Origin: Octopus sinensis
Lineage: Eukaryota
Reading direction: 5' to 3'
Assembly: GCF_006345805.1 (NCBI RefSeq)
Contig: NC_043003.1
Coordinates: 33,604,001-33,668,000 of the forward strand
Length of the DNA stretch: 64,000 nt
Shown here: piece after piece, positions 10,300 to 45,490 of the stretch
How positions within the stretch are numbered: the first letter of the stretch is position 1
How the letters are laid out: the number at the start of each line of letters is the position of its first letter
Notes under the pieces: generated by a model
Seen by the model: the letters and a program-made list of their open reading frames with translations, nothing else
Database searches by the model: none
What the model was told of the DNA's origin: nothing
Position numbers and translations under genes: made by a program

Positions 10300-11650
10300 T
10301 GCACTGTTTGCATGCGGCAAAATATTTTACATTCATTCCCTTGTTGAAAGAAGTCTACTGACAGGTACAAAATTATACCCAACAAAATTAGATTTCTTCA
10401 ATTCCATAATCGTGTTGGATATTAGCATACAGTTTAAAACATCAATGGATGCCCTAACTCACTCTCCACTGATTAGTTTGGGGATGTAGCTTAGCTTTTC
10501 TAGATCATCTCTGATGAAGCTATTAACATACTTCAGAAAAGTTTCCAGTAGTATGTCAGTACAGTTGTTTAACGATGGGTTCTACATGACGTGCTAGTTA
10601 ACATGTCTTGATTTTCAATCGCAGTGTTTCTTTGCTGGCTTCATTAGTTACTGGCGTTTGTCGATTTTCTCTAAAACATAGAAAAGGCTAAGTTAAAAAT
10701 TTCTCATACGGTCGATTTCTTCGTATGTTAGACATTTTCATATAGGTGAAATAAGGATGAAACATCTTTATTTATTTTCTGTTGTTTACATTTTTAATCA
10801 TTTAGGGTAGGAACAATTTTCTAGCATGGAAGTACTTGGTCTTTGTAATATTCTGTGTCCATCGCTACTACAGCACTCCCTTTATCGACATTTTGTCATT
10901 TCTGTTTCAGTTTAATTAAGTTTCCCATTCAGTAGTGCTGATGTTTGTGTTAATTCTTTGTTTGTATAATATATTACAAGGGAATTTCAGAATGCGATCA
11001 CTAAAGCCACGGAGCGTTTTATTCCTATCTTTAGTCAGAAGGTAATTGCTTTTGCTTACAAGTGAGTCATCATCATTATTATAGTTAAGTAGTGCTTCTG
11101 TAGGTCAAACCTGTCTGCAAAATTCCATAATTTTATCCTGATTACGTCTGCGTGAGACTGGGAAAAATTATAAAACTTTTACTAGTAGGTTAACTTTGTA
11201 AACTTCTTGAAAATTTTTCTTTGATGAATTTATCACAATGGGATTTTTCTGTGTGTTTTGATCTAAAGTGTCTCTCTGTTTCTCTGAACTGAGTCTAATA
11301 AACATTTCTTGTAATTACATTCTGTTTACTGTCAGTGTTACTAATTATATTTAAATTGTTAGGAGGCTGGTTCTGTTGTAAAAGAACATTAAGCCTCTTT
11401 AGTTGTTTCTTGTTCCTTCGTTGAGAGTTACAAATAATTCCTCGAGTGTTTCTCGTTGCTAGAAAAGTAGTATTCGTAATCCTGGAGTGAATCCGTCTAG
11501 TCTTTCTAATATCTGTGTTGTCTTTATGTCTGGTTTCAGAACGATTTACTTTCAGGCGTGTGGATGGTTTTGTGTAGTTGTGTATTAGATTGTTGAGGTG
11601 ATCAAATAGCATGGCTCCGTGAGCTGTAAGGCATCAAGCCCGTTAATGCA
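10300..11650 (-). pseudogene. Decayed Penelope-like element (PLE) reverse transcriptase
   Basis: Manual minus-strand translation across frameshifts gives, in order: VDKGSAVVAMDTEYYKD (DKG at 10878-10886), FYVLEKIDK (cf. FYGLPKIHK), SCRTHR-LNNCTDILLETFLKYVNSFIRDDLEKLSYIP, ASIDV..LYANIQHDYGIEEI. Motif order and content match PLE RTs. Outer limits are approximate and the part above ~10950 is weakly supported. Confidence 0.75.
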
Positions 11651-41736: not shown

Positions 41737-41958
41737 TACAGGTGAGGGAAAATAGGTGAACGAGAAAGATGTTCTCCACAGGGTTTGAACTAGGAGAGGA
41801 AATAAAAGGTAAAGGATCTGCAAATTATAAAGAATAATAATATCCGACGCACTAAATTTAACGACACTACCGATTCAAAGTTTATATGTATGAAGACGTG
41901 CACATTCATAAATATGCATGTATACATGCACACATACATACATACATACATACATACA

Positions 41959-41992
<34 letters not shown>

Positions 41993-41994
<2 letters not shown>

Positions 41995-42635
41995 TACAGA
42001 TAAAGGGTGAAATATAATTAATTTAATAAAATCAACAAATTTCAGCAAGTAGTTTTTCGGTATGGAAAAGGACCATATTCGGTAAAATTATATATAATTA
42101 TAACAATGAGTGTTTTTGCAACAGGTTGCTAGACCACATACCGAAAGTATTAGAAATAGCAGCCAGAAGACTGTTATATCTTTTACTACAAAAATATGTC
42201 CCACAGACAACAGTATTTGTAACTCACTATGGCAAAAAAAAACGAAGAAAAACAACGAAATCAAACAGTGTCCGGTCAATTATGGACGCATACGTTTCTG
42301 GATTAGAATCAGGGATTCATTTCCTTCATCAGCATAATATTCCGATAAATAAATCTAGAAATGCTAGGAAATCTTGCCACCATATTCCGAACAGGCGACA
42401 TCGGACATACAGAAGCTGATCAGCATATCCACATTTATATAGACAAGTGAATTCGTATCTCCCTCCAGAATTTCTCCCTCGTGAATCACAAATAATACTG
42501 CCGAAAATTAATTCGTAGTTCCGTCGTAGGGGAGTAAAATAATCAATACAGATAAAGGGTGAAATATAATTAATTTAATAAAATCAACAAATTTCACCAA
42601 GTAGTTTTTTGGTATGGAAAAGGACCATATTCGGT

Positions 42636-42648
<13 letters not shown>
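41993..42648 (-). mobile_element. 552-bp unit plus ~100-bp terminal direct repeat, carrying an HHR (retrozyme-like or PLE pseudo-LTR)
   Basis: atacagataaagggtg...cggtaaaattatatata occurs at ~41994-42095 and ~42546-42647 with 2 mismatches seen; flanked by microsatellites. Confidence 0.8.
42279..42338 (-). ncRNA. Type I hammerhead ribozyme, canonical core
   Basis: Minus strand: attatg-CTGATGA-agga aat gaatc cct gattc taa tcca-GAAAC-gtatgc-GTC-cataat. Stem I is 6 bp, stem II gga/tcc plus gaatc/gattc, stem III ac-g-tatg-c-gt (near-palindrome), GUC cleavage triplet. Confidence 0.8.
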
Positions 42649-42678
<30 letters not shown>

Positions 42679-42900
42679 TCAATATAAGGGTAGCAAAAAA
42701 TTCAATAGGAATTTTTTTCGCCACCAGCGGTCTAGTGAGAAAGAGTAAATAGTTACAGACTATATATATATAATTTCAACAATATTAAGGAATGGCCCTG
42801 ATAGGCCATTCGACTCACCAGAAAGAGCAGCCAAACTCAAACCGCTAAATAGTAGTAATTCAGAAATCAAAGGAAAATTAAAAAACATTTACCCTAATCA

Positions 42901-43003
42901 TCTTTGGACAATGCATTGTTTCGACGTACTTTATGGCAAACCAGCCTAATTAAATTAAATTTAATCAAGTTAATTTACCAATGGCTCGTCTCATCGGCAA
43001 AGA
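42901..43003 (-). ncRNA. Type I hammerhead ribozyme, variant core CCGAUGA
   Basis: Minus strand: tctttg-CCGATGA-gacg-[60-nt insert]-cgtc-GAAAC-aatgcatt-GTC-caaaga. Stem I is 6 bp; stem III is the perfect palindrome acaatgcattgt. Confidence 0.7.
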
Positions 43004-43385
43004 AGCCAGGAGGAATAAACATTCCACGAGGCAGCAGCTTCGATGCCTCGGGAATGTATACTCTAAATTTTCAGAATCTACCGTAATCGCGCCAACTTAT
43101 CAGCAGCAAATATAAAGTGATGATTTAATTTCAGAATTAGTCAAAAAATCATTAATTAATCAATATAAGGGTAGCAAAAAATTCAATAGAAATTTTTTTC
43201 GCCACCAGCGGTCTAGTGAGAGAGAGAAAATAGTTACAGACTATATATATATATATAATTTCAACAATATTAAGGAATGGCCCTGATAGCCCATTCGACT
43301 CACCAGAAAGAGCTGCCAAACTCAAACCGCTAAATAGTAGTAATTCAGAAATCAAAGGAAAATTAAAAAACATTCACCCTAATCA

Positions 43386-43493
43386 TCTTTGGACAATGCA
43401 TTGTTTCGACGTACTTTATGGCAAACCAGCCTAATTAAATTAAATTTAATTTAATCAAGTTAATTTACCAATGGCTCGTCTCATCGACAAAGA
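43386..43493 (-). ncRNA. Second copy of the hammerhead motif, core UCGAUGA
   Basis: Same stems as 42901-43003; GUC sites are 485 nt apart. Confidence 0.6.
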
Positions 43494-44918
43494 AGCCAGG
43501 AGGAATAAACATTCCACGAGGCAGCAGCTTCGATGCCTCGGGAATGTATACTCTAAAGTACGTCGAAACAATGCATTGTCCAATGCATTAGGGTAAATGT
43601 TTTTTTTAATTTTCCTTTGATTTCTGAATTACTGCTATTTAGCGGTTTGAGTTTGGCTGCTCTTTCTGGTGAGTCGAATGGCCTATCAGGGCCATTCCTT
43701 AATATTGTTGAAATTATATATATATATATAATAGATACGTTAACGAATATGTGTGTGTTTGTGTACGTGTCAGCTTGCGTGAGTATGTGTGCGCAGGTAA
43801 TTTCAGAAGCTTGAACTACACATGTTTAGAAGCATATAGATCAGAGAAACAAAAATATAGAGGCAGATGCAAACCCACATATTCCAGCATAGAGGAATTG
43901 ATGTAGTTTAGTATAAAAACATGCGTTGCTAATTTTTACCTCAAGAGTCATATCGCAACAATGTCGATGAAATAAAACAGTGGACGTTCGCTTTAACAGA
44001 CTATAGCATTGAATGCATTGTTCCAACATAGCCCAGATTATAATAAATGAATCCAGTCACAGAACGAAGAAACAACACATACAAATACAATAAATAAATA
44101 TATAGTGGTTGCTACAAGCTATTAAAAACAGTAGCTAAATGCTACCGCCTGAACTGCTTATGAGTACATGAAAAAATGCATATTGGATAATGCAGTCTGT
44201 GATATACTACCTCGGGGAAAAGATAAAAAAAGGAAACAAAAAAAAAATTAACCAAAATTAAGAAGTGTATTGCACTGCCTTAAGTGGCTTTGATCATGCC
44301 CGATTTGTGGCTAAACTACAGTAATAAAATAGCAACGGCTTTAACAATATGAACAACAACAACACTCATAGATATTTTGTTTAGGCTTTTGGTTTTATAT
44401 CATTACTTTTCTCTTTCGTTTCTTACTCTCTATGTCGTGTTTTGTTTGTTTGTTTGTTTTTCTATTACAAATCTCTATTTTCATTTGTATCCTCTTAATT
44501 ATAACATTTTCACATTTCATAAATTCCTTCGTAATCTCCTTCTGTTCCGCTTTATTTCCTCCTCTCTTTCCCTCTCCTTCTCACTCTCTTTCAGTTTTGC
44601 CTTCCTCTCTGCCTCTTGTTAAACTATCTTTATTTTTACAGACACTTATTCTTGTTCTTACTCAACATATTCCTTCCATTCTATCATTCTCTTTTTCCTT
44701 ACCTACTGCTTCGTTTCACTCTCTTCTCATCTGCCCATTCATTCTCCATCGCAGTCTTCCCCACTCTCTTTCTCTCTATCTCTCATTCTCTCTCTATCTC
44801 TCACTCTCTCTCATATCATAGTAAATGTTTTATTAAAATTATTATTTTACGTTCACTTCTTTCAATTTTTCTTACCTAGCACCGCTTTTTACTACAACCT
44901 TCATTATAAATCTCACTA

Positions 44919-45490
44919 AGGCGGCGAGCTGGCAGAATCGTTAGCACGCCGGGCGAAATGCTTAGCGGTTTTTTGTCTGCCGCTACGTTTTGAGTTCAAA
45001 TTCCGCCGAGGTCGACTTGGCCTTTCATCCTTTCGGGGTCGATTAAGTAAGTGCCAGTTACGCACTACGGTCGATATAATCGACTTAATCCGTTTGTCTG
45101 TCCTTGTTTGTCCCCTCTGTCTTTAGCTTCTTGTGGGTAATAAAGAAATTGGTATTTTGTCTGCCGCTACGTTTTGAGTTCAAATTCCGCCGAGGTCGAC
45201 TTTGCCTTTCATCCTTTCGGGGTCGATTAAATAAGTACCAGTTACGCACTGGAGTCGATATAATCGACTTAATACATTTGTCTGTCCTTGTTTGTCCTCT
45301 ATGTGTTTAGCCCCTTGTGGGTAGTAAAGAAATATGTATTTCGTCTGGGGAACACTCTGAATTCAAATTCCGCCGAAATTGCCTTTCATAATTTCTGGTC
45401 GATAAATTAGGTACCAGTGAAACACTAGGATCGATGTAATCGACCAGTCCCTTCCCCCAAATTTCAGGCCTTGTGCCTATAACAGAAAGG
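44919..45490 (+). mobile_element. SINE family A composite: head, two young bodies and one old-type body
   Basis: Bodies restart at gtattt(t/c)gtctg (~45152, ~45337). The last body ends in a different tail, cccccaaatttcaggccttgtgcctataacagaaagg. TSD attataaatctcacta (44903-44918) / attataaatcttacta (45491-45506). Confidence 0.9.

Follow-up and report, generated by a model that had tools for sequence, protein, structure and literature searches.

The window that we analyzed, a stretch of 64,000 nucleotides (G000:C7:33604001-33668000), comes from a 2.72-Gb genome that is rich in AT and microsatellites. Read along the minus strand, it carries an inverted fragment, a truncated unit (copy A), a full unit (copy B), and then (TA)n, which bears out an earlier note on this DNA that had described 1.8 tandem units plus an inverted partial unit. 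The features of the insertion and its flanks are as follows:

42674..43154, minus strand: full 481-bp unit (copy B, unit positions 1-481), the 3′-most along the transcript; its terminus, on the 42674 side, is fixed end 2, followed by the (TA)n target
43155..43557, minus strand: 5′-truncated unit (copy A, unit positions 88-481), head-to-tail with copy B
43554..43730, plus strand: inverted 5′-truncated fragment (unit positions 222-394), whose terminus is fixed end 1 in (TA)n
43565-43580, plus strand: hammerhead 3′ half only (GAAA...GUC), in the inverted fragment
42761..42773, minus strand: internal TA tract, fixed 3′ end 1, where 109 of 323 family pieces stop
42674..42760, minus strand: 87-nt tail from fixed end 1 to fixed end 2, where 175 of 323 pieces stop
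42640..42673, no strand: (TA)n target tract, left flank
about 43719-43733: shorter TA tract, right flank

Copies A and B are 96% identical over 403 nt (7 substitutions and 2 gaps), and in the inverted fragment a short local rearrangement adjoins the partial hammerhead, behind GAAA...GUC. No open reading frame longer than 97 aa is found in 41900-43800 (table 11), and there is no reverse transcriptase (RT) or GIY-YIG frame such as an autonomous Penelope-like element (PLE) would have. On the minus strand, positions 41997-42640 hold a unit of about 550 bp plus a partial one of another hammerhead repeat, family C (hammerhead at 42337-42280), and the TA end of this repeat is the site that took in the insertion studied here. 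Across 36 related copies of family C, the core is U3-A8 in 19 and U3.G8 in about 15 to 16, with C3-G8 in the window copy only, and stem III is a short near-palindrome that varies by 2 nt. Elsewhere in the window, 44967-45334 contains two 184-nt direct repeats with 91% identity.

Copies A and B each contain a hammerhead motif:

43386..43493, minus strand: hammerhead A (type I), in copy A
43493-43488/43391-43386, minus strand: stem I of hammerhead A, UCUUUG/CAAAGA
43487-43481, minus strand: core of hammerhead A, U3 C4 G5 A6 U7 G8 A9
43480-43408, minus strand: stem II of hammerhead A, with GAAA from 43407
43404-43393, minus strand: palindromic stem III of hammerhead A, with C17 at 43392
42901..43003, minus strand: hammerhead B (type I), in copy B
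43003-42998/42906-42901, minus strand: stem I of hammerhead B, UCUUUG/CAAAGA
42997-42991, minus strand: core of hammerhead B, C3 C4 G5 A6 U7 G8 A9
42990-42923, minus strand: stem II of hammerhead B, with GAAA from 42922
42919-42908, minus strand: stem III of hammerhead B, with C17 at 42907

Both have the type I layout, with three helices round the core and the ends in stem I. Several particulars that the earlier note had given can be read directly from the letters: the GUC sites are 485 nt apart (C17 at 43392 and 42907), stem III is a perfect 12-nt palindrome in both copies, core position 4 is C in both (43487-43481 and 42997-42991), and stem II consists in both of GACG/CGUC and the long AT-rich insertion, which forms a hairpin. 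Its description of the hammerheads as minimal does not hold, as stem I has 6 bp and a 4-bp stem III is additionally possible inside one copy. The locus departs from the consensus core (C3 U4 G5 A6 N7 G8 A9, G12 A13 A14, A15.1-U16.1, H17) by C4 in both copies and by U3 in copy A, with the remaining positions in agreement; U4 subfamilies within the same family have the consensus core. Copy A is a double variant (U3.G8 plus C4), and its C3U change, which is private to it among the 128 two-half motifs that we collected, probably cripples this hammerhead on top of C4.

The motif is not a chance match, since reversed-pattern controls gave 0 matches and since, in 24 C4-only copies, 98.2% of 336 pair cells are paired, compared with 26-46% when the partners are slid. 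An Rfam scan of the window gave nothing at gathering thresholds and 8 weak matches, none of them to a hammerhead model; the stem II extension of about 60 nt is likely behind this missing match.

The insertion belongs to a dispersed family (family A), for which a 20-nt pattern outside the ribozyme has at least 1037 exact genomic matches (control, 0). Among 323 distinct pieces from the fetched loci, 284 end at one of the two fixed 3′ ends and 39 at neither, and 5′ starts are scattered. TA follows 159 of the 284 fixed ends and a further unit follows 79, with 75 of the 175 end-2 pieces passing directly into the next unit without a linker. The youngest subfamily forms arrays of up to six units, and different subfamilies may adjoin within one array (L210/L088). 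In sum, more than 1000 copies lie dispersed in the genome; they are flanked by (TA)n, have two fixed 3′ ends, are truncated at scattered points on the 5′ side, and include 5′ inversions and partial tandems. Family sequence is also present in four contig sets, whose RNA origin is only guessed and which carry neither end nor strand information. In L205:3230-4509, an insertion of about 1.3 kb, presumably a mariner-type DNA transposon judging by eye, splits a family unit at the TA of the internal TA tract.

Partial tandems, 5′ truncation, 5′ inversion, and two 3′ ends with a tail are traits of Penelope-like non-autonomous elements. The pattern described for PLEs includes partial tandems, 5′ inverted copies, an optional tail, and (TA)n targets (PMC8557442, partial text), and the tail has been accounted for by two internal RT start sites (PMC11167929). 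A (TA)n microsatellite target, as in the Neptune and Naiad clades (PMC8557442, partial text), is found both at the locus and across the family. The earlier note had taken the tandem and inverted architecture as a Penelope-like hallmark, and the ends, inversions, and (TA)n flanks of the family agree with this. The 87-nt tail holds a motif common to related families, with 905 genomic matches; these families form a wider group of colinear non-coding hammerhead repeats (family B and L340-L389).

When core positions 3 and 4 were tabulated across genomic copies, as the earlier note had suggested, U3 proved to occur in 1 of 128 motifs, and in the stem I/stem II context of the window C4 had 67 exact genomic matches and U4 had 1. 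In a sample chosen by a non-ribozyme pattern, the 61 complete motifs comprise 45 with U4 and 16 with C4, and the incomplete ones lack the 3′ half (25) or the 5′ half (13); this sample consists of the 99 anchors that could be recovered from the first 100 places on the list, which cover about one chromosome, and some of its rows are offset by one base and were read by eye. These two counts indicate that C4 is the state of subfamilies, neither local nor family-wide, and it is fixed in many of them, while the youngest and most abundant subfamily has U4. The earlier note had proposed that a CUGAUGA consensus would make the variant a local mutation. The family majority is indeed U4, but the fixation of C4 in many subfamilies does not fit a local mutation and supports the other reading that the note had offered, a natural core variant.

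A tree of 100 of the 128 copies, those covering unit positions 110-340, with position 4 dropped, requires three changes at that position, as do 200 of 200 bootstrap trees (the bootstrap was not fully converged). Family B (L198:1000-1420 and L232-L261) is a colinear relative with U4 in 30 of 31 copies, and when the tree is rooted on it, U4C is gained once, on a 100/100 branch, after which the C4 subfamilies branch off as a ladder with two U4 groups nested among them. C4 as a single clade is rejected (p-AU 0.0005, for a group set by state after the tree had been seen). With the ribozyme columns taken out and family B as the sole outgroup, the root falls weakly inside C4, so that its position depends on the choice of outgroup; a root there would place the U4C gain on the family stem and would imply three returns. 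Adding four nearer U4 relatives (L352, L358, L359, and L364) brings the root, as taken from runs that keep family B, back among U4 rows, also without the ribozyme columns, with support of 99-100 for the C4-containing clade. Median pairwise divergence, although inflated by flank truncation, follows the same order (basal U4, 0.091; C4 groups, 0.067-0.078; youngest U4, 0.019-0.023), and the other reverted U4 group is heterogeneous (0.085). From the trees we infer that U4C was gained once, persisted through the ladder of C4 subfamilies, and gave way twice to U4.

Two returns to U at the same site have a P of about 0.01-0.06, depending on which of two flank C>T rates is applied; this figure is suggestive and post hoc. 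CpG decay was considered as a source of the returns and rejected, given that C>T change at CpG sites of the flanks shows no rise on internal branches and only a small one on end branches (1.4 vs 1.0). Instead of point reversion, the apparent returns might reflect exchange with U4 relatives, by template switching or gene conversion. Such exchange would be in keeping with the adjoining of different subfamilies in one array (L210/L088) and with the long branch (0.098) to a 14-row U4 group, but in the 4-row U4 group stems I, II, and III all have the versions found in its C4 sisters, and this group nests among those sisters whether or not the ribozyme columns are included; we consider this explanation quite unlikely.

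Evolution of the motif under C4 bears on the remaining suggestion of the earlier note, a recently inactivated lineage. From the rate at 215 flank sites, 5.2 changes would be expected in the 11 invariant bases of the core along the 69 internal C4 branches, and 0 are observed (P about 0.005); end branches carry 10 changes in these bases vs 9.9 expected, as neutral decay after insertion would predict. Two-sided changes occurred on C4 branches in pairs 1 and 4 of stem I, pairs 2 and 3 of stem II, and, twice, pair 3 of stem III, and among the C4-only copies both partners have changed in 5 of the 14 pairs; taken by itself, the number of two-sided pairs did not stand out from a shuffle control (93/500), which ignores relatedness. 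The hammerhead fold is thus supported by its pairing and by compensatory changes in all three stems. Many tree rows were picked by exact core patterns, so that subfamilies with altered cores would be hidden among them; in the outside-anchored sample, which covers about one chromosome, we found no altered-core subfamily, and GAAAC/GUC was intact in 71 of 74 copies. Pair 10.1-11.1 is G-C in 65 of 69 C4 rows, went from G-C to A-U after both U4 returns, and is A.A in the youngest subfamily. Families B and C, like this youngest subfamily of family A, have A on both stem II sides next to the core, apparently by convergence.

U4C is known to lower in vitro activity considerably and yet to permit viroid infectivity (PMC3088659, partial text, citing Ambros and Flores 1998). 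One could therefore suppose that the substitution killed the ribozyme of the source copies and that the element coasted on a trans protein until U4 lineages took over, which would also suit the presence of U4 in the youngest, most abundant subfamily. Nevertheless, over a C4 path of 12-15 branches, amounting to 0.28-0.34 substitutions per site, the rest of the core stayed unchanged and the stems took at least five two-sided changes; the young U4 subfamilies arose from C4 subfamilies, and the count of 0 vs 5.2 core changes largely refutes inactivation. Thus, the inactivated lineage of the earlier note does not stand up well, and we regard it as highly improbable.

Of 74 copies, 68 have a perfectly palindromic stem III, which comes in four versions with an unchanged central UGCA, and 98 of 100 listed variants of this stem are complementary (counted by eye). 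The persistence of stem III as a palindrome in four versions favors dimer folding, and the duplex is calculated to be far more stable (-15 to -19 kcal/mol) than the hairpin (+0.8 to -1.0 kcal/mol), both of which support the proposal of the earlier note that the palindrome lets tandem hammerheads pair as a dimer. As a monomer alternative, a 4-bp stem III hairpin with a UGCA loop is possible. Folding energies for a 711-nt model transcript favor the double hammerhead over two monomers by 10.6 kcal/mol, and the active double fold lies 8.8 kcal/mol above the free ensemble, so that help from a protein or from co-transcriptional folding would likely be needed, as has been reported for PLE hammerheads (PMC4209133, partial text; PMC11167929). 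An inactive C4-G8/stem III fold, which is the monomer MFE structure here, was considered as a reason for C4 and discarded, as it is not kept in UA-type stem III. If the two units pair as a dimer, the site of copy A (43392) would be cut by the core of copy B, in which C3 is intact, and that of copy B (42907) would be cut poorly by the doubly altered core of copy A; since this second core carries C3U as well as C4, the product of about 485 nt is likely to be scarce at the locus.

We consider it probable that the locus is an insertion of a non-coding 480-bp family, likely a non-autonomous retrozyme-type passenger of Penelope-like proteins, and that its motif is a likely working ribozyme, weakened under U4C. 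A tandem array would be transcribed from the minus strand, and a trans-acting RT/GIY-YIG protein would nick (TA)n. Reverse transcription would begin at either of two internal sites, producing the two ends and the tail, and 5′ truncation and inversion would arise as the element inserts. By pairing of the palindromic stem III, two units of one transcript would form a double hammerhead, with cleavage after GUC that would be slow or aided by a protein. Inserted copies would decay neutrally, the core being kept only by source copies. Several points count against this explanation. The active double fold lies above the free ensemble, the root of the tree depends on the outgroup, many tree rows were picked by core pattern, and no autonomous element that shares DNA with the unit turned up in a partial search. 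Moreover, the neighboring family C amplified with a U3.G8 core, which indicates that weak cores are tolerated more widely, hammerhead mutants left insertion in vitro unaffected (PMC11167929), and only 1 of 9 retrozyme dimers has been reported to cleave in vitro (bioRxiv 10.64898/2026.07.22.740005, partial text).

Units could also be excised at successive GUC sites, circularized, and reverse-transcribed round the circle to give more-than-unit insertions, a route that is compatible with the passenger explanation and adds a circular intermediate to it. Head-to-tail units without a linker (75 of 175 end-2 pieces), the six-unit arrays of the youngest subfamily, and the circRNAs described from mussel and coral retrozymes (PMC7229834, partial text) all fit such a route. 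The ends of insertions, however, map not to the cleavage site but to two points that lie 130-220 nt downstream of it, and a linear tandem transcript accounts for the same structures, which leaves the circular route possible but doubtful.

A further alternative is that the fold is selected for something other than cleavage, with the three-way junction and palindrome serving as a signal for PLE-protein binding, dimerization, or packaging, and with U4C abolishing catalysis at almost no cost. Cleavage by the hammerhead is dispensable for insertion in vitro, and an anole PLE has no RNA ends at the cleavage site (PMC11167929); weak cores amplify in the neighboring family, and the youngest subfamily has A.A at 10.1/11.1. 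In contrast, the 11 invariant catalytic positions, including the single-stranded G5, G8, G12, and C17, are unchanged on internal branches, position 4 went back to U twice (with the post hoc P given above), and related families and an autonomous element keep catalytically sensible variants such as U3-A8. We thus judge a purely non-catalytic role to be unlikely. More tentatively, within a range that we would still call possible, the lineage may be tuned for slow cleavage, with one brake swapped for another: U4C with G10.1-C11.1, and later U4 with A-U or A.A. If so, the genome would hold a graded, ordered natural series of hammerheads, and Penelope-type mobilization would favor a ribozyme that works, but not too well.

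We also looked for an autonomous partner of the family. The same genome has an abundant RT plus GIY-YIG element, identified by Pfam (L217 and L224), with the same layout of two ends, internal TA, and tail, the tail being present at 7 of 18 ends and the other 11 passing directly into TA. It shares no DNA with the 480-bp unit. Its CxxC linker is one that we take to be of Neptune type, in part after PMC8557442 (partial text). In L217:1630-5291 and in L224, a 781-aa frame follows a 466-aa upstream frame that starts just past the tail, and the pLTR hammerhead of this element has a U3-A8 core and a short palindromic stem III. In a partial search, blastn of the unit against 30 plus 20 GIY-YIG loci, drawn from 147 scored matches among 5029 candidates, gave no convincing match. 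None of 50 loci with the tail motif continued into an open reading frame, and a motif scan of the tail-motif places found a hammerhead in only 6. Matches to PLE proteins beside family copies (L188, L141, and L150) were rejected as partners, since they look like separate insertions with TA tracts or unrelated sequence between. The window itself has, at 10376-10572 on the minus strand, a short broken match to a Penelope-like RT protein (E about 1e-6).

A PLE-type non-autonomous hammerhead repeat is real at this locus, and its architecture is already known in kind. Non-LTR retrozymes have been proposed to be non-autonomous PLE derivatives (bioRxiv 10.64898/2026.07.22.740005, partial text), and the unit agrees with the definition of a non-LTR retrozyme in that source. 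Like metazoan non-LTR retrozymes, it is non-coding and low in GC, occurs in tandem or dispersed with one type I hammerhead per unit (PMC7229834; bioRxiv 10.64898/2026.07.22.740005, both partial text), and co-occurs with autonomous PLEs; a mussel retrozyme family also departs from the typical loop 1-loop 2 layout (PMC7229834, partial text). In contrast to retrozymes, for which 150-450 bp is quoted, the unit has about 480 bp, a long stem II, and U4C in many subfamilies, and it occurs mostly as partial tandems and inversions with two fixed ends. The pLTR hammerheads of EN+ PLEs (Neptune, Penelope/Poseidon) are alike in their partial tandems and 5′ inverted copy (PMC4209133 and PMC8557442, both partial text; PMC11167929), and in the optional tail from two RT starts, the (TA)n target, and the palindromic stem III. 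The family differs from them in having no open reading frame, a tail of 87 nt instead of 30-40, a 12-nt palindrome with a 6-bp stem I instead of a minimal motif, and no DNA match to an autonomous element among the 50 GIY-YIG loci compared. It also has C4, whereas the PLE core variant in print is U3-A8 (PMC4209133, partial text).

In a viroid, U4C has been described as a natural variant that leaves the rest of the core intact and permits propagation (PMC3088659, partial text); here, in contrast, the host of the variant is a genomic animal retroelement in which U4C is fixed across many subfamilies and its gain and two returns are recoverable. A search for the CCGA core in two supplementary files of PMC4209133 (partial text) gave no core match, and in the literature searched we found no report of U4C in an animal retroelement, a weak absence given that the likeliest source of such variants lay outside that search. 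The subfamily-wide U4C state, together with the evidence for continued selection on the core and the two likely returns to U4, all read from sequence comparison, is likely to be new.

The function of hammerheads in PLEs has been called unclear (PMC8557442, partial text), and hammerhead mutants had no effect on insertion in vitro (PMC11167929). In this likely passenger family, which encodes no protein, the source lineage shows purifying selection at the catalytic core, despite a substitution reported to weaken cleavage. The persistence of U4C through many subfamilies with the rest of the core conserved likely offers a natural test of why elements carry ribozymes, as natural U4/C4 sister pairs with few differing positions make the relation between cleavage rate and transposition success directly testable. 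Families of this kind would escape searches that demand CUGANGA and a short stem II. The core CCGACGA, a short stem II, and a 6-bp stem I also occur in a hammerhead-like match in L096 (minus strand, about position 174), with a similar repeat in L110; this match may represent either an independent case of C4 or chance.
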